Source: a virus. From it: a DNA stretch of 19,487 nucleotides. The notes below the pieces were generated by a model. The model did no database searches. It was not told the origin of the DNA and was given only the letters and a program-made list of their open reading frames with translations. The position numbers and the translations under genes were made by a program. Position 1 is the stretch's first letter. Each line of letters starts with the position of its first letter. The stretch lies in UHGV virus genome UHGV-1272094. One strand, given 5' to 3'. Shown in pieces: positions 5,034-18,064 of the stretch.

Positions 5034-6173
5034 TTAACCAAGAATCAGACAACCATGTGCCGGCTTCACTGATGAAACACCCCATGCCAGTCCAACTTCA
5101 TAGCGCACCTGGCGATACTGACGATACAGTGCAATCTGGAACGTAATCCCTGAAATCGGGTCCGTAACATTCATTACATCATCAGCATTATCGCCACCTT
5201 CCGGCATTGCCGGAGTACGGGATGCCAGCAGAAACGCGTTGCGATCAAACGCCATATTTGCCGTAAAGGCCCCAACAACTGTGATGGCAGTATCATCGGC
5301 CAGATCCTGACGCAGTCCGGGCGCTGCAAGAGTAATCAGATTGCTGGTCGCTGCTGCCACAACATACTGATTCGGATTACCAGCGAACGTAACAATCTGA
5401 CCTGCAGAAATACTCCCCGAACCAGTATCAATGGAAATAAGAACATCGCCTTCTTTTTTCTCTCCATTCACGAGATAACCAGTTGCAGCAACCTTTGGCG
5501 CTCGTTTCACACCTGCCGAACTGTGAATATTGAATCCCTCCAGACGCCCCAACACGCCCTCACGCAGTAGCTGTTCAGTGCCGGATTCATTCACTTTAAA
5601 CAATACAGACTGTTTTCCGCGCAAATTAGCAATGGCAGTGGAGCCAAGCACCATCTGCAGATCGGTTGTCGGTGCGCCGTTATCCTCCAGAACCTGACGA
5701 GCCAGAGCAGCATCAGAAAGATCATCTTTAACACCAAACGGCGTTGTCCCTGCGGTTCCCACGGCGCGGGAAGCACCGAAATACAACGCACCAAGATCAG
5801 CCTCAACCTCGTTTGCAAGGGCGCGAAAAGCCTGCTTGAACTGATCAGCCAGAATGGTGTTGTAAGTCCCTGAAGGGCCAAGAGCCAGTTGTTCTTCACC
5901 ATTCCATTTAACCGGTGCCATTTTGGATTTAGTAATTTTTACATCAACAGTGCCAATATTTTGATCACCGGTATTCGGAGCTGACGGCCCCGGTACGATA
6001 TCTTCGGTTTTCGCCTCAGGCGCAACTGGCGCGGTTACCGTCTGATCTTTTGCTGCGGCGTCAGCTTTTACGTTTTTTGCTACCGCAGGGATAAAACCTA
6101 CCTGCTCACGGGATACAACATCCAGGGCGGTATAAATAGTCGGGATCAACCCGGTCAGGGTATTTCCAGCCAT
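5034..6173 (-). CDS. Major capsid protein (P22 coat-like by recollection)
   Basis: ATG at 6171-6173 with AAGGA upstream, 379 aa, MAGNTLTGLIPTIYTALDVVSREQ... The longer ORF-track start at 6266 is a TTG. Position after scaffold; C-terminal region resembles P22 gp5-type coat proteins from memory. Confidence 0.75.
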   Translation of the reverse strand: MAGNTLTGLIPTIYTALDVVSREQVGFIPAVAKNVKADAAAKDQTVTAPVAPEAKTEDIVPGPSAPNTGDQNIGTVDVKITKSKMAPVKWNGEEQLALGPSGTYNTILADQFKQAFRALANEVEADLGALYFGASRAVGTAGTTPFGVKDDLSDAALARQVLEDNGAPTTDLQMVLGSTAIANLRGKQSVLFKVNESGTEQLLREGVLGRLEGFNIHSSAGVKRAPKVAATGYLVNGEKKEGDVLISIDTGSGSISAGQIVTFAGNPNQYVVAAATSNLITLAAPGLRQDLADDTAITVVGAFTANMAFDRNAFLLASRTPAMPEGGDNADDVMNVTDPISGITFQIALYRQYRQVRYEVGLAWGVSSVKPAHGCLILG

Positions 6174-9645: not shown

Positions 9646-10947
9646 TTAAATCCGAAGTGATGTGACTCTTCCGGTCGGTTTGACAATAGGGAATTGCTTA
9701 ACGATGAAATAACCTCCGGCATCATTCGGGTGATCATTGCCAGATTTTTTATCAGGCTCCCCCTTATCATCCCAGACCTGTTGCTCCAGAGATTCGGCAT
9801 ATACCGGACAACGCTTCACATTAACTTTATAGCGACGCTCACCATTGGCATTGCAGAACATTGCATTCATTGAGTTAACGCGATCTTTTACTGGCGGGTT
9901 CGAGCTGTTCACCACAACGTTAAAACCTGCCTGCTTAAGCTGGGCTATATCCGTCGTACTTGCGTTACTTGATTTTCTGGAATCTCCGGAAGCATCTGGA
10001 TAAATATAAATCTCCCTCACTTTCCGGTAATCATGCCCGTCATACAGCCAGAAGCGTTCTTTAATGAGGCGGATCATATCCGGCGTATCGTAGGCATTGA
10101 TGATTTCAGTTACCGCACATGGAAGCCCCAAACGCAGCACATGGACGATTCCCGCCATCTTTCCAACGTTAAAATCCATCCCAATATAAATCGGCTCCCC
10201 TGGCTGCTCCACTTCTTCGCAATTATTCAGTTTCCGGTCAAACTGATGGTAAACAGTACCACTTGTCAGGTTAGTAAACCGTCCTAGAAGATAGGCTTTA
10301 ATCAGCTCTGGAGGGTATGATTCAAGAAGTGAAGGAATGTAATCTGCTGGCAGGTTCTTTTCATTATCGAAAGTAGATGCCTGCACCAGACCATACAGTG
10401 AGGCCAGCTCTGTTTTTTCACGCACGGCTTTAACAAACTGCTCGTAGACAAATTTGAATCCTTCCGGCGTGGTTGTAACGTCAATACCGTTGCGAAGTCC
10501 ATCAATCTTATAACGCATACGCGCAATTATCTTGCGCCACGCCGTTCTGGCTTTTTCCTTCGGCAAAATGTCCAGTTCATCCACCAGCGCATTACCAATT
10601 TTGAAACCGACGATCGTTTGTGGCTTCTCCATCGATCTGCAGATAGTGGTTCCCCGATACTGGCGTCCGTAATAAAAGTGAACCTCTTTATTTCCCTCAT
10701 TAATTTTTACGTTCAATCCCCAGTCAGCAGCAACTTCTTCCACTGTAGGGTAAAAAATATCGCGAATTTGGGGATACGTTGGCGCAAAATATCCCTGATT
10801 TATACCTGGATGCTCCCAAATCCCCTTGCATATGCCGCCACACCCAACCCATGTTTTGCCCGAGCCAAAACCAGCAATATAGGCTTTAAATTTATGGGGC
10901 ATTGAAAGAAATCGCGCCTGAGGCACATTAAGCGTCGGAGAGATCAT
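9646..10947 (-). CDS. Terminase large subunit
   Basis: Walker A motif in ...KAYIAGFGSGKTWVGCGG... Preferred ATG at 10945-10947 with AAGGAG 8 nt upstream, 433 aa. Overlaps the terS stop by 20 nt. Confidence 0.9.
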   Translation of the reverse strand: MISPTLNVPQARFLSMPHKFKAYIAGFGSGKTWVGCGGICKGIWEHPGINQGYFAPTYPQIRDIFYPTVEEVAADWGLNVKINEGNKEVHFYYGRQYRGTTICRSMEKPQTIVGFKIGNALVDELDILPKEKARTAWRKIIARMRYKIDGLRNGIDVTTTPEGFKFVYEQFVKAVREKTELASLYGLVQASTFDNEKNLPADYIPSLLESYPPELIKAYLLGRFTNLTSGTVYHQFDRKLNNCEEVEQPGEPIYIGMDFNVGKMAGIVHVLRLGLPCAVTEIINAYDTPDMIRLIKERFWLYDGHDYRKVREIYIYPDASGDSRKSSNASTTDIAQLKQAGFNVVVNSSNPPVKDRVNSMNAMFCNANGERRYKVNVKRCPVYAESLEQQVWDDKGEPDKKSGNDHPNDAGGYFIVKQFPIVKPTGRVTSLRI

Positions 10948-12022
10948 CTTCATCACTCCTTAATCTGGCATCAACCACATTAATATTGATCGCCACAGGC
11001 TGGGGATGTTCATTATCCTCCACCGTTTCGATCTCTTTGCGCAGCTTCTGGTTCTCTATTCTGCGCCGTTCAATTTCCAGTTCCTGTAGCCGCTTATCTG
11101 CACATAATGCCCCGCCAGCAGAAAGCAAACGCAACAATTCACGCCGGGCGGCAGCCTTATCCTCCAGCAGGATCTCAACACCGTATTTTCCGAGCTTTGA
11201 CCCTGCATATAATTGCCGCGCATCCCCATCAAGCAGTGTGGTATCAGCCATATAAAGCTGTCCTGTTCCCTCACCGCAGCACTTCGGGCAATCAGGATTG
11301 GGTATGGCGTTATCAACAAAGCCGAGGCCTCCATATTCCGGCTCGGGTTTACCATCTCTGGAGGCCTGTGCCGCAGCCTTATCGAATTCTGCAATATCAC
11401 GCCACTGGTAGAGATGATTCTCGCCCCAGCAATAACGGCAGTTAACACGGCGAAATTGTGCCAACTGATTGGGGTCGGCCTGGACAATGGCCATCAACTG
11501 GCTCACCAGTAAATCCAGGTCTGCGGTATAGCGTTTCTGGTACTGATTGCGGAAGTAGCTGATAGCACGATAAACCCTGGCATTTCTAAGCATACGGCTG
11601 GCGTTGCTGTTAGCTGTCGCACCTTGCCCCTCATAACCAGCCAGTCGGTATGCCTCTGTCGGCTTTTTCCCCTGAGCAACCAACATGGCGAATTTTGCCT
11701 GCTGGTCAGAAATACCGAATTCATCGGGGCAGAACGAAATTTCTTCCGTGTCCCCCTCAATCAGGAGTGCATCGGATACAGCCTTTTTTTTCTGAGATTT
11801 TCCGTTCTGCCTTTGCGCAGTCTGCGCAGTTTTTTTTCGCGCACTTTTTTGCGCAGTTTTGCGCATTTCTTTCTGCGCATTTTTCGGAGTTTTTTTGATG
11901 TAACGACGGGCTGTTGCGTAGTTCAGTCCCCTTGCTTCACACCATGCCACCGGAGATATACCGGAGCGGGTGTATTCAGCAATATACTCCTGCTGCAACG
12001 CCCCCCAGTCCGGTCTGCTCAT
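10928..12022 (-). CDS. Terminase small subunit, unusually long (364 aa) with extra domains
   Basis: Central segment ...QQAKFAMLVAQGKKPTEAYRLAGYEGQGATANSNASRMLRNARVYRAI... matches the conserved terS core as I recall it. N-terminal HTH-like region, Lys-rich linker, and C-terminal Cys-rich segments (CRYCW...CPKCCGEG) plus coiled coil. ATG 12020-12022 with AGGA upstream. Confidence 0.8.
   Translation of the reverse strand: MSRPDWGALQQEYIAEYTRSGISPVAWCEARGLNYATARRYIKKTPKNAQKEMRKTAQKSARKKTAQTAQRQNGKSQKKKAVSDALLIEGDTEEISFCPDEFGISDQQAKFAMLVAQGKKPTEAYRLAGYEGQGATANSNASRMLRNARVYRAISYFRNQYQKRYTADLDLLVSQLMAIVQADPNQLAQFRRVNCRYCWGENHLYQWRDIAEFDKAAAQASRDGKPEPEYGGLGFVDNAIPNPDCPKCCGEGTGQLYMADTTLLDGDARQLYAGSKLGKYGVEILLEDKAAARRELLRLLSAGGALCADKRLQELEIERRRIENQKLRKEIETVEDNEHPQPVAININVVDARLRSDEDDLSDA
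11814..11879. repeat. Array of six palindromic TGCGCA hexamers (one CGCGCA variant) separated by T-tracts, inside terS
   Basis: Copies start at 11814, 11823, 11838 (variant), 11850, 11860 and 11874, spaced 9-15 bp apart and each followed by T runs. The array encodes the Lys-rich linker of terS. Confidence 0.8.
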
Positions 12023-12025
12023 CAG

Positions 12026-12277
12026 TTAGTCCTGATTTTTATCCACCCTGAGTAGTTCGCGCAGAGCAAAGGCATCCCCTTTTCTGGCAAGCTTAAACAA
12101 TGCCGCTCGTAACTCGGCTTCACCTTTCGCTCTGCCCTTACGGATGGCCGCATAAAAATCTGTCATTGCTTCCCGATTTTCTTTCAGTCGGTTCAGATCA
12201 ACATCCAGAACGTCAGCGATTTGTTGTGCAGTCATCCGGCACGCTGCCAGAGACTCGACTTTCGAATACGGAATCAT
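12026..12277 (-). CDS. Small HTH-like protein of unknown function upstream of terS
   Basis: 83-aa ORF MIPYSKVESLAACRMTAQQIADVLDVDLNRLKENREAMTDFYAAIRKGRAKGEAEL... Stop is 3 nt before the terS ATG. Its 5' end overlaps the 3' end of the GT-like gene. Confidence 0.5.
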   Translation of the reverse strand: MIPYSKVESLAACRMTAQQIADVLDVDLNRLKENREAMTDFYAAIRKGRAKGEAELRAALFKLARKGDAFALRELLRVDKNQD

Positions 12278-13169
12278 TTGTCACCCCCATTGATATGCAG
12301 GGTGTCTTCTTCCTGTATTTTTCGTGAAGGATTTTTACTGCAGCGTTGTTCCAGGTGACCTGATGGTGAATGCGTTTATGGCTGGCACCCATCAGTGAGA
12401 TTTTTACGCACGACGGCGAATACATGACGGAGTAAAAACTTTTAACGTAGGTTCCGGAATCCAGATACAGCTCGGTCATTCCGCCGCTGTTTTTCTGCGT
12501 CTGTTTCTGCCCTAACTGGACAGCACCGATCGTCATAAACAATTCACCACAGCGACCGAGATTCGTGTACGTATTCACATCCTCGTTAATGCGCCCCATG
12601 AATGAGAACGGTCGATCAACCGAACAGATAAAGCTGTTCATTGCCTTGCGTTTCACCCACGAAGCATGGCCGCCATTGTCACCAAGAAAATCCCCGCCCT
12701 GCGACATAGCGATGGAAAGCGCGGGTATTGATTCGTAATACGCCAGCATTTCAGAAAGGATCGCATCCAGTTTCCTTATCGGGAAATAGGCCTGGTCATA
12801 GTTGCGATCCACCCGAAACTGGAACTCGTGATAATCATCATCGAGCTGAATGAAGTATTTACACCCGACCAGTTTTGCCAGGTCGAAACAGGCATTACGG
12901 GCGTAAAAAATTGAGCGGCGATCACCAAAATTATCGGCTTCGTCAAAACGACTGGCAATATCGGCTTTGGAAAATACCAGCACCTGTTCACCAAATTCAG
13001 CCATGTACTGATGCCGTGTCTTATCTTCATCATCAACAACGATAAAAATTTTCCCGGTATAGCCAGCACGACGCAACGTCCGGTAAGTCAGAACTTTGTC
13101 CGGTCGCCCGTGAGTCAGAATAAAGGCGCAAAAATCATCACGCATATTCCTCCTCCTCCTCCCCGCCAT
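12213..13169 (-). CDS. GT-A fold glycosyltransferase-like protein
   Basis: N-terminus AFILTHGRPDKVLTYRTLRRAGYTGKIFIVVDDED resembles the first strand/helix/strand of GT-A (GT2-like) enzymes. A DxD-type motif follows at ...YFIQLDDDYHE... Alternative ATG at 13145 gives 310 aa, with GGAGGAGGAGG just upstream. Confidence 0.55.
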   Translation of the reverse strand: MAGRRRRNMRDDFCAFILTHGRPDKVLTYRTLRRAGYTGKIFIVVDDEDKTRHQYMAEFGEQVLVFSKADIASRFDEADNFGDRRSIFYARNACFDLAKLVGCKYFIQLDDDYHEFQFRVDRNYDQAYFPIRKLDAILSEMLAYYESIPALSIAMSQGGDFLGDNGGHASWVKRKAMNSFICSVDRPFSFMGRINEDVNTYTNLGRCGELFMTIGAVQLGQKQTQKNSGGMTELYLDSGTYVKSFYSVMYSPSCVKISLMGASHKRIHHQVTWNNAAVKILHEKYRKKTPCISMGVTNDSVFESRVSGSVPDDCTTNR

Positions 13170-13932
13170 GCATGATCTCCACCATGCGCTGCGTCATTCG
13201 GACAAATCCATTTTCAATAGCCTGCTGATAATCAATGATCACCAGCGCCGACTCCTCGAAAAGGCACTGAATTTCAGCGGGGGCATGAGCGTAATAGTCC
13301 GCAATTCTGCTGAAATTAAACACTGTGTGACGTTCTGCCGCACACAGGAGGAATTTCTCAATATCAGGATCAAGGGACGCCGAACGTATCCGGCTGATCA
13401 GCTCCTGAGTTTTCGTATCGTCGTACAGTTCACTGATATCCGGTTTACCGCCCGACGGCTCATAAACAGGCGTATCAATTTTCGTCGTATACGGCTCCTC
13501 CTCATTTCCTGTACCGGGCAAAACATCCGTCAACAGTTCATCAATTTCTGTCGGGATGAAGCCTGTCAGGGAGACATCAAAATCAGCATTGATTAGGTCC
13601 GACAGCTCCATCCGCAACAGATCTTCATCCCAGCCAGCATTCATCGGCAGGCGATTATCTGCCAGGCGGTACGCCTTTTTCTGCTCATCCGTCAGGCCAG
13701 ACAGAACAATGACCGGAACAGAATCCATTTTGAGCATTTCAGCCGCCATAACACGACCGTGACCCGCAATAATTTCGCCCTTTTCGTCAATCAGCACCGG
13801 ATTAGTCCAGCCGAATTGCTTAATACTTTCTACCAGTTGTGCCACCTGCTCAGGGCTGTGCGTCCTGGCGTTGTGCGCATACGGTGACAATTCTTGTAAT
13901 GGGCGATAGACTATCTTTAATTTCTCGCTCAT
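13138..13932 (-). CDS. ParB-like nuclease domain (ParB/Srx fold) protein
   Basis: MSEKLKIVYRPLQELSPYAHNARTHSPEQVAQLVESIKQFGWTNPVLIDEKGEIIAGHGRVMAA... is a typical ParB N-terminal domain with the GxGR box. Acidic C-terminal tail GGEEEEEYA. ATG at 13930-13932. Confidence 0.8.
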   Translation of the reverse strand: MSEKLKIVYRPLQELSPYAHNARTHSPEQVAQLVESIKQFGWTNPVLIDEKGEIIAGHGRVMAAEMLKMDSVPVIVLSGLTDEQKKAYRLADNRLPMNAGWDEDLLRMELSDLINADFDVSLTGFIPTEIDELLTDVLPGTGNEEEPYTTKIDTPVYEPSGGKPDISELYDDTKTQELISRIRSASLDPDIEKFLLCAAERHTVFNFSRIADYYAHAPAEIQCLFEESALVIIDYQQAIENGFVRMTQRMVEIMHGGEEEEEYA

Positions 13933-14069: not shown

Positions 14070-15545
14070 TTAGGAGCGCCAAAAAAAACCTGAAAACAAT
14101 ATAATAACAGGATAAATTTCAAGGCGACCAAGAATCATAGCTATGCACATTAAACATTTTGCAATGTCATTAAGCACTCCGAATGACGATGCAGTAGCCC
14201 CAAAACCTAATCCCATATTATTAATACATGCAGCCACTGTTGCAAATGATGTAAGAAAATCATATCCCATACCATTTAACACCAGTATAAAAAACACCGT
14301 GAAGAGAGTATAAAGAAAAAAGAAACTCCATACAGACCTCATTACACGATCTGTAACTATCTTCCCTCCTACATTTACACTCAACAACGCTCTGGGATGA
14401 GAAAGCTGATTTATCTCGTGTTTGCTTTGTTTGAAAAGTATAAGAAATCGAAGTGACTTAATTCCACCACAAGTTGAACCTATACATCCCCCAAAGAAAC
14501 TTGACAACAGCAAAAACACTATCGTGTGCGTGGGCCAACTTGCATAATCCTGCGTAGCTAAACCATTATCAGTGAGCATGGAGCTGGCAAGAAAAAACGA
14601 ATGAATAAAACTTCCATGCAAGTCATACATACCTATATGCCAGACCTGGAAAGAGGTAACAATGATCACCCCTAAGGCTATTAACAGAAAGAAACGAAGT
14701 TCAATATCTCTGATTAAAGGTTTTATCGTTTTCCTGCTAATAACAATATACCAAAGAGTGAAGTTGAAAGCCGATAGCAGGGAAAAAGAACGAGCCACCA
14801 GCTCAACCAAATAGTTATTAAAATATCCGATACTCTCGCTATGAGTTGAGAAACCACCAAGCGAAACTGTGGAAATCCCGTGACAAATAGCATCAAACAA
14901 AGGCATTCCTGCAAGTCTATAACAGACAATACAAGCAATACCTAATAAAGAATAAGTTATCCACAGTGTCCGTGACGTATCGGCCAGGCGGGGAGTGAGT
15001 TTGTCATCCTTAAATGGCCCCGGCATTTCTGACTGATAAAGCTTTGCACCACCAATACCCAATAATGGCAATACAGCAACCGCCAGAACAATAACTCCTA
15101 AACCACCTATAAAATTTAACTGTGACCGATAGTACAAATATGCCCGAGGTAATGAACTAACATCATCAATTACAGTTGCTCCTGTTGTTGTTATTCCAGA
15201 AACCCCTTCAAACAGAGCATCAATGAACGTTAAATTAAGTTCTGAGTCAATCCATAAAGGGAATGCACTAATAACAGAAAACAAAATCCAAAACATTACA
15301 ATTATAATAAACCCATCACGGGTACGTAATTGAATGCCAGATTTCTTAGTTGTATACCACGCTCCGCCACCAATGCAAAAAAATATAACGAAAGTTATAA
15401 AGAAAACGAACAGGCTTTTTTCTTTATAAAACAATGCTACAACCATTGGTGGCAACATTGAAAGACTATAGAGCCAAACCAGGAACCCACACATATGAGT
15501 AACAACTCTTACATGAGATGTATTCATATCTAAATATTCTTTCAA
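14070..15545 (-). CDS. trkG: TrkH/TrkG-family K+ uptake membrane protein (prophage cargo)
   Basis: Polytopic membrane protein with TrkH-family motifs (...FEGVSGITTTGATV..., GGxGG-type loops). Matches my recollection of E. coli TrkG, which is encoded in the Rac prophage. TTG start at 15545 has AAGGTGG 6 nt upstream; the ATG at 15527 gives 485 aa (MNTSHVRVV...). The gene is visibly AT-rich compared with its neighbours. Confidence 0.85.
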   Translation of the reverse strand: MKEYLDMNTSHVRVVTHMCGFLVWLYSLSMLPPMVVALFYKEKSLFVFFITFVIFFCIGGGAWYTTKKSGIQLRTRDGFIIIVMFWILFSVISAFPLWIDSELNLTFIDALFEGVSGITTTGATVIDDVSSLPRAYLYYRSQLNFIGGLGVIVLAVAVLPLLGIGGAKLYQSEMPGPFKDDKLTPRLADTSRTLWITYSLLGIACIVCYRLAGMPLFDAICHGISTVSLGGFSTHSESIGYFNNYLVELVARSFSLLSAFNFTLWYIVISRKTIKPLIRDIELRFFLLIALGVIIVTSFQVWHIGMYDLHGSFIHSFFLASSMLTDNGLATQDYASWPTHTIVFLLLSSFFGGCIGSTCGGIKSLRFLILFKQSKHEINQLSHPRALLSVNVGGKIVTDRVMRSVWSFFFLYTLFTVFFILVLNGMGYDFLTSFATVAACINNMGLGFGATASSFGVLNDIAKCLMCIAMILGRLEIYPVIILFSGFFWRS

Positions 15546-17089: not shown

Positions 17090-17485
17090 CTAACCTCGCA
17101 TGTCAAAGCCAGATTTCTGAAAATCTCTGTAGACTTCCGGATTGTTGAAGGCCGGAAATTTGGCTTTATGAGCTGCGGACTTTATCGCTTCGCAATAGGC
17201 TTTATCACCGTTACTGGTAGATATTTTTAACGCCGTGCCATCCTGAGAGAATTCCATATGCAACCTGCATTTTTTCCCTTTCCAGTTATGCGGCTCATCA
17301 AGTTTGGCATTAATTGCAGCTCTGATTCCCCGCGCTTGCGCCCCCCATTCATCCTGATCATCCCAGCGTCCTGAACTGCAACTACCTGTAGCAGTAGTTT
17401 TGTGGCAATCTGAAGGGTGTAAAGGTGTGCATCCCGCAACAAAACCGACCCAAAAAGTCAACATAACGATTTTCTTTAATCCCAC
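17090..17485 (-). CDS. Lipoprotein with TolA C-terminal (domain III)-like module, copy 1
   Basis: GTG start at 17483-17485 with GAGGAG 6 nt upstream. Signal peptide MGLKKIVMLTFWVGFVAGC with lipobox VAGC. C-terminal ...GIRAAINAKLDEPHNWKGKKCRLHMEFSQDGTALKISTSNGDKAYCEAIKSAAHKAKFPAFNNPEVYRDFQKSGFDM aligns with copy 2 and with the TolA C-terminal domain as I recall it. Confidence 0.7.
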   Translation of the reverse strand: MGLKKIVMLTFWVGFVAGCTPLHPSDCHKTTATGSCSSGRWDDQDEWGAQARGIRAAINAKLDEPHNWKGKKCRLHMEFSQDGTALKISTSNGDKAYCEAIKSAAHKAKFPAFNNPEVYRDFQKSGFDMRG

Positions 17486-17635: not shown

Positions 17636-18064
17636 TCAGGGTTTAAAATCCAGCACCCCATTTTGAAATACTTTATATACTTCCGGCGAAGGGGGGGCAG
17701 GTATATCAGCATTCTTTATCGCATTCATCGCTTCACGACATAAATCGAGGTCTCCACTTTCTCTTTTAACCTCCAGTAGAAGGCCATTCGGGGCCATATG
17801 CATTCTCAGTGTACACTCTTTTCCTGAATACTTACTCGCATCCCCGAACTGTTTTTCGATGGCGCTCTTGATTTGATGGGCATACAGACGGATATCCTCA
17901 CTAACATCAGAAGTACGTTCAGATGAACTCACATACTGTGTCTCTATTGCTTTATCGGAGTAATATGATGTACGGTCATGATAATTTGTCGATACAGCAT
18001 CAGTGCACCCGATAATAATCCCACTAATAATCAACGTAAGAATTGATGCGCTACGAAAACCCAT
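17636..18064 (-). CDS. Lipoprotein with TolA C-terminal (domain III)-like module, copy 2
   Basis: ATG at 18062-18064 with GAGGA 5 nt upstream. Signal peptide MGFRSASILTLIISGIIIGC with lipobox IIGC. C-terminal ...YAHQIKSAIEKQFGDASKYSGKECTLRMHMAPNGLLLEVKRESGDLDLCREAMNAIKNADIPAPPSPEVYKVFQNGVLDFKP resembles TolA domain III (recalled ...QIKSAIESKFYDASSYAGKTCTLRIKLAPDGMLLDIKPEGGDPALCQAALAAAKLAKIPKPPSQAVYEVFKNAPLDFKP). Confidence 0.75.
   Translation of the reverse strand: MGFRSASILTLIISGIIIGCTDAVSTNYHDRTSYYSDKAIETQYVSSSERTSDVSEDIRLYAHQIKSAIEKQFGDASKYSGKECTLRMHMAPNGLLLEVKRESGDLDLCREAMNAIKNADIPAPPSPEVYKVFQNGVLDFKP
17942..18036. repeat. Left copy of a perfect inverted repeat of at least 95 bp, inside the 5' coding region of lipoprotein 2
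   Basis: Plus 17942-18036 equals the reverse complement of 19393-19487 at every position checked by hand. Identity stops abruptly at 18037/19392. Confidence 0.9.

Follow-up and report, generated by a model that had tools for sequence, protein, structure and literature searches.

To our knowledge, only a handful of pac sites have been defined so far, and these sites decide which DNA a transducing phage moves. In P22 (gene 3), SPP1 (gene 1 region) and the staphylococcal phages, the small-terminase gene contains pac or adjoins it, and the reader is a TerS oligomer with an HTH; the P22 site is a single asymmetric sequence of ~22 bp and not a hexamer array, and we know of no additional PacA-like N-terminal module in the TerS proteins of these phages. 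Phage lambda, by contrast, packages from cos, where the nick site is fixed and IHF assists bending; short repeated gpNu1-binding elements (the R sites of cosB) stand beside the cut site but not within the Nu1 coding sequence, and the winged HTH at the N-terminus of gpNu1 reads them. The pac site of phage P1 spans 161 bp within pacA; it contains seven TGATCA/G repeats, is under Dam control and involves IHF/HU (PMC10028697; PMC11260489, where P22 is also discussed). In the annotated P1 record, pacA begins ...FNLNPNTARRYLRAF... and its N-terminal helix reads ...LNPNTARRYL...; the hexamers are found at pacA nt 194, 201, 213 and 228 and again at 324, 336 and 347, on either side of the IHF site and of the mapped cut sites (~nt 277-284 of pacA).

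A hexamer array inside terS of a Rac-type prophage

The window, that is the whole stretch of 19,487 nt that we analysed (UHGV-1272094), is an intact Rac-type lambdoid prophage of E. coli in which every gene lies on the minus strand. The genes run from a Q-like antiterminator, holin, lysozyme and Rz through trkG, a ParB_N-domain gene, a TET-associated-glycosyltransferase-like (TAGT-like) gene and a small ORF to terS, terL and the portal and head genes (Table 1). The terS gene is labelled terminase small subunit in phage records that are 95% identical, and its product passes the Pfam threshold for Terminase_2 over aa 122-316 (36.1 bits against a gathering cut-off of 26.1) and matches PHROG 51 at E 6e-75. 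The ends of terL and terS overlap by 29 nt, and the terL product is the presumed nuclease and motor that would cut near the array described below. Of 5,426 complete E. coli genomes, 882 contain the 5' region of terS at an identity of at least 91%; a 100%-identical prophage is carried by strains such as CFSAN061771.

Two further features of the region were observed. The 83-aa ORF upstream of terS matches the middle of a PHROG 309 profile named 'terminase small subunit' (E 8e-23, profile positions 145-218 of 319) and may be a remnant or an accessory packaging protein. Within the Terminase_2 domain, a Cys-rich insert (CRYC ... CPKCC; 11270-11440, minus strand, TerS aa ~195-250) may form a zinc ribbon; the Klebsiella homologue gives a faint DnaJ_CXXCXGXG match.

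Table 1. Positions of the features discussed, in window coordinates
Feature	Position	Strand	Remarks
terL, large terminase	9646..10956	-	Pfam Terminase_6N E 3.5e-32, Terminase_6C E 7.8e-11
terS, small terminase, 364 aa	10928..12022	-	Pfam Terminase_2 (PF03592), PHROG 51
Terminase_2 core domain codons of TerS (aa 122-316)	11075..11659	-	Pfam
Lys/Gln/Ala-rich linker codons (~aa 45-95), array inside	11738..11890	-	variable among relatives except for the hexamers
Hexamer array, five TGCGCA and one CGCGCA	11814..11879		inside terS, gene nt 144-209; proposed TerS recognition part of a pac site
N-terminal PacA-like HTH module codons (aa 1-44)	11891..12022	-	AF2 model, hhalign, PHROG cross-hits
Predicted recognition helix YATARRYI codons (aa 35-42)	11897..11920	-	R39 codon at 11906-11908
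83-aa ORF between glycosyltransferase gene and terS	12026-12277	-	PHROG 309
TAGT-like protein	12213-13169	-	PF20691 E 6e-35; PHROG 842
ParB_N-domain protein	13138-13932	-	with the TAGT-like gene, directly upstream of terS
trkG (TrkH family)	14070-15545	-	prophage cargo; E 1e-144
Two small ORFs with TolA C-terminal domains	17090-17485, 17636-18064	-	prophage cargo

The original prediction had placed six hexamers, one of them CGCGCA, within about 65 bp inside terS. The array is confirmed, over 66 bp: TGCGCA starts at 11814, 11823, 11850, 11860 and 11874, and CGCGCA occupies 11838-11843. Five of the 11 exact TGCGCA copies of the window thus sit in the array; the nearest further copy is 776 bp away, and no second hexamer cluster was found in the window. 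The T-tracts between the hexamers and the Lys-rich coding that had been described are likewise borne out, since the T-runs of the + strand are Lys AAA codons on the coding strand and the array encodes aa 48-70 of TerS (NAQKEMRKTAQKSARKKTAQTAQ), between the HTH (aa 1-44) and the Terminase_2 domain. The proposed helical-turn spacing holds only loosely: start-to-start distances are 9, 15, 12, 10 and 14 bp (mean 12), a range of 9-15 bp that departs from a strict helical repeat. In the family as a whole, distances of 7, 9, 12 and 14 bp are the most frequent.

When 11 copies were placed at random, none of 200,000 placements put five of them within 61 bp. Synonymous resampling with the peptide fixed (aa 44-75), drawing on the window's own codon usage, gave at most four copies (57 of 100,000 draws) and never five (0 of 100,000). 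The clustering of the hexamers is far beyond chance and is not driven by codon choice. Within the window, too, the frame is not uniform: one copy is read as ATG-CGC-AAA, the others as xxT-GCG-CAx.

Conservation of the array in relatives

IMG/VR and a degenerate-pattern DNA scan of species-representative genomes together supplied 114 distinct loci, of which 75 are non-redundant; they span Enterobacterales, Vibrio, Aeromonas, Shewanella, Photobacterium and Pasteurellaceae. In Klebsiella, Yersinia and E. coli phages whose TerS is 34-44% identical to that of the window, 4-10 hexamers are present at gene nt ~130-210. The TerS gene of Klebsiella phage ST974-OXA48phi18.2 (39% identical) has six TGCGCA, which lie between gene nt 138 and 196 and use all three frames, that of E. 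coli phage PHB10 (34%) has three TGCGCA and one AGCGCA, and that of Yersinia phage vB_YenM_29.18 (44%) has TGCGAAT repeats at the equivalent place. The density of the cognate hexamer reaches 1.5-2.2 per 30 nt at gene nt 120-180, against a background of ~0.02.

The reading frame of the hexamers varies. Among 314 TGCGCA copies in 57 non-redundant loci, 235 are read as xxT-GCG-CAx, 59 as xTG-CGC-Axx and 20 as TGC-GCA, which gives the peptides xAQ, [LVM]Rx or CA, and in Pasteurella phage Pmp11 TGCGAA is read as CE or AN. The hexamers persist in all three frames in distant TerS genes, where they encode different peptides; the array is an element that is conserved as DNA rather than as protein. In the Rac-like group, four to six of six possible hexamer positions are filled and single copies turn over; the minor-allele fraction is 0.037 in the hexamers, 0.075 in the spacers and 0.152 in the downstream sequence.

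These comparisons bear on one alternative, namely that the array has no DNA-level function and is the by-product of a repeated peptide (a TAQK-like basic linker) or of a recent tandem duplication. Tandem Repeats Finder does pick up the array region, with periods of 36 and 12 nt, and most copies encode xAQ. However, resampling of the same peptide never yields five copies, a quarter of the copies lie in other frames and encode other peptides, and the array is kept across genera while spacers and peptide diverge; moreover, a frameshifted terS allele (L052) keeps all five of its hexamers while encoding a different peptide. A peptide-repeat origin was therefore rejected on the codon resampling and the frame analysis, and we regard this explanation as the least probable of all those weighed here.

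Several loci depart from the common layout. In Rac-SA53 (L004:2450-3478), terS is fused to O and no longer encodes the HTH, and only two hexamers are left in it. A group of 329-aa TerS from Klebsiella and Enterobacter (L006, L007, L069, L101, L154 and others) has a second cluster of two to three TGCGCA at gene nt 347-397, ~170-210 nt downstream of the first; this cluster is confined to that group, is absent from the window and recalls the arrangement of the P1 hexamers in two blocks.

Of 122 triple-TGCGCA arrays sampled from IMG/VR, 71 are in the TerS context described here. The motif alone is not diagnostic, since the other 51 lie in unrelated contexts, mostly tandem coding repeats. One unrelated viral contig carries two near-identical triple-TGCGCA elements just upstream of two neighbouring small genes (L220:4592-4637 and 5462-5507), which look like operators.

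The N-terminal HTH module and its pairing with the hexamer

The array always lies directly 3' of the codons of a module of ~45 N-terminal residues, M-A-K-P-D-W-G...W-C-E...G-L-N-Y-x-T-A-[RK]-R-Y-I-K. In an AF2 model run on the single sequence (pLDDT 72), aa 1-60 form helices at 6-20, 24-31 and 35-42, with a pLDDT of ~80 over aa 11-40; since the model places the third helix at 35-42, YATARRYI would be the third and presumptive recognition helix. PDB sequence and Foldseek searches with the HTH gave no significant neighbour, and the top-ranked matches were all HTH domains. By profile comparison, the module and the PacA N-terminus are distantly homologous: hhalign aligns the two over 40 columns with a probability of 92.9% (E 3.7e-7), the TerS of the window matches PHROG 1711 (the PacA family) at E 2.4e-4, and PacA matches PHROG 370, the Stx-phage-type TerS family with the module, at E 1.9e-4. 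The homology is distant in that pairwise BLASTP of TerS and PacA is weak (E 0.11).

The same module heads TerS proteins whose remainder is unrelated, in the Stx-type phages GER2 and PhiR12_3, Klebsiella RothD, Providencia PSTCR3 and Pasteurella Pmp11, and in each of them five to nine copies of TGCGCA or TGCGAA lie in the codons right after it. No array is present in four TerS used as negative controls (Bcep22, F116, Parlo and SJM3), in which the Terminase_2 core is the only shared part. The array is thus linked to the HTH module.

The hexamer also co-varies with the predicted recognition helix. Of the 57 loci with ARRYIK, 53 have TGCGCA, and all 18 loci with AKRYIK have TGCGAA/TTCGCA, TGCGAA being a sister motif that is not palindromic; residue 39 (R or K) matches the motif class in all 71 array-bearing loci, without mixed cases (Fisher 3e-17). 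The two classes are interleaved, and some pairs, for example L084/L069 and L166/L185, have identical 31-residue scaffolds and differ only in helix and array. The perfect association is partly a matter of physical linkage, because the helix codon and the first hexamer are only ~20 nt apart; the fact that all 4-10 copies of any one array agree in concert nevertheless favours a matching of helix and motif. On these sequences, helix and motif seem to obey a simple rule throughout a large family.

Four loci with the ARRYIK helix have neither an array nor another obvious repeat (L113, L116, L206 and L132); in two of them, which come from marine Gammaproteobacteria, the gene is intact, whereas the other two are truncated. 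Two small terminases with a different N-terminal HTH (L221:1982-2584, plus strand, ...ESTLRKRIASGGW...; L316:241-873, minus strand, ...ESSIRYKANQNDW...) have three to six TGCGCA copies right after the HTH codons, and the design of an HTH followed by an array may therefore exceed the family analysed.

Three alternatives that grant the array a function can be weighed against these data. In the first, the palindromes and T-runs would be intrinsic terminators that halt antisense transcription, on the + strand, into the late operon. Three weak terminator-like hairpins, in which the palindromic hexamers are followed by T-runs, are indeed found at 11813-11879 on the + (antisense) strand only, against 1.5 expected over the whole 1.1-kb region scanned. 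Their stems, however, are just 6-7 bp long and spacing is variable; the TGCGAA class consists mostly of direct repeats that are unable to pair (73 direct and 29 inverted), so that such hairpins are not family-wide, and the co-variation with the helix would be left unexplained. We consider terminators very improbable.

In the second, the hexamers would bind another protein of the phage or the host, with the ParB-like product of the upstream gene and host regulators as examples. ParB_N and glycosyltransferase-like proteins are encoded just upstream of terS in the window, but array-bearing loci in other phages lack the pair, and it is the TerS helix, not these neighbours, with which the motif co-varies. 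The same absence was one of the grounds on which a P1-like methylation control was rejected. A different binder is, in our judgement, quite unlikely.

In the third, TerS or its HTH would bind the array for autoregulation of terS/terL or in another role outside packaging, with pac lying elsewhere. The location of the site inside the gene of its predicted binder would suit such a role, as would the four family members that have the helix and lack the array, which means that the array may not be indispensable. Against it, no promoter-like site was found near the array, the homologous arrangement in P1 is an experimentally mapped pac site, and the sole role of TerS known to us is genome recognition for packaging. 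We hold autoregulation to be unlikely, and every one of these alternatives, the peptide by-product included, accounts for less of the evidence than a pac site does.

A candidate pac site of the P1 type and its place among known packaging systems

We propose that the array is probably a recognition site of the P1 pac type, read by the N-terminal domain of TerS. The candidate pac site of the original prediction is thus supported, by the conservation of the array at the DNA level, by its co-variation with the helix, and by the homology and shared layout with P1 PacA. TerS carries its extra N-terminal HTH on a flexible Lys-rich linker, the DNA of which holds four to six TGCGCA; in the proposed mechanism, several HTHs of one TerS oligomer would bind neighbouring hexamers cooperatively. 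The hexamers bound by TerS would mark the phage concatemer and recruit TerL, which would cut nearby and begin a headful series toward terL and the head genes, leftward in the window.

The headful mode, a weaker detail of the original prediction, would here follow from the family resemblance of TerL. The nearest TerL relatives belong to K1G-, Jersey- and HK578-like siphophages (40-55% identity), which we take to be headful packagers. Together with the relatives of TerS, of which PEp14 and Pavtok, related in the core, are termed 'headful (933W type)' (PMC7317114), they suggest that this prophage may package by the headful. In the E. coli LF82 phage Gally, pac maps inside its own terS (PMC9928086); we rejected Gally as direct experimental support because its TerS is an unrelated 140-aa protein, which makes its pac uninformative on the present TerS family. 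The literature that was searched gave no description of the array or of the module, nor of packaging ends or TerS binding, for this phage group, and the published accounts of Morganella phage Mecenats66 and of Yersinia temperate phages held no relevant packaging results.

A broader reading, which we put forward tentatively and rate a little below an even chance, is that the window shows one instance of a widespread and portable pac cassette, which would consist of a PacA-like HTH and its own hexamers, located immediately 3' in the same gene. It would follow a code of one residue and one base (Arg39 with TGCGCA, Lys39 with TGCGAA) and would have been grafted onto TerS with unrelated oligomerisation cores. 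From the loci collected, such a cassette appears to be hosted by Rac-like, Stx-type, Klebsiella, Yersinia, Vibrio, Aeromonas and Pasteurellaceae prophages. If this reading is true, pac, packaging specificity and the origin and direction of lateral transduction would become readable for hundreds of prophages, and specificity might be reprogrammed by point mutation and synonymous recoding.

A pac signal that can be read from sequence would make lateral and specialised transduction from such prophages predictable, and the array would provide a 110-bp tag for packaging plasmids into their capsids. The Arg-TGCGCA and Lys-TGCGAA classes would also form a natural orthogonal pair for testing how an HTH ring reads repeated sites.

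Among the systems described so far, the window resembles P1 in its layout. In both, multiple copies of one hexanucleotide lie within the small-terminase coding sequence; these are TG-NN-CA hexamers placed shortly 3' of the HTH codons, in mixed frames, and the third helix of the HTH reads TARRY in PacA and in the TerS of the window alike. There are also differences. The P1 hexamer, TGATCA/G, contains the Dam site GATC and cleavage is controlled by methylation (PMC10028697), whereas the hexamer of the window is TGCGCA and GATC is absent from 11790-11900. No TET, hydroxymethylase or methyltransferase gene is visible in the window, and a P1-like methylation control was rejected on the lack of GATC, the lack of a methyltransferase in the window and the non-palindromic nature of TGCGAA. 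The P1 hexamers form a bipartite 4+3 arrangement around the IHF and cut sites (PMC10028697), whereas those of the window form a single cluster, with no IHF consensus within 4 kb. The core of the window TerS is Terminase_2 and not of the PacA type, and its TerL (Terminase_6N/6C) is unrelated to PacB (BLASTP E 0.83).

Like the pac sites of P22, SPP1 and the staphylococcal phages, which are embedded in the small-terminase gene or adjoin it, the candidate site would be read by an HTH-bearing TerS oligomer. With lambda cosB it would share repeated short elements for TerS binding, but the R sites lie outside the Nu1 coding sequence and the array inside terS, and no sequence relation between gpNu1/cosB and the element of the window was found. 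A P1-type pac site made of hexamers inside the small-terminase gene is a known kind of element; the array of the window would be an undescribed member of it, in which the hexamer is another one, a methylation site is lacking and the layout is simpler.
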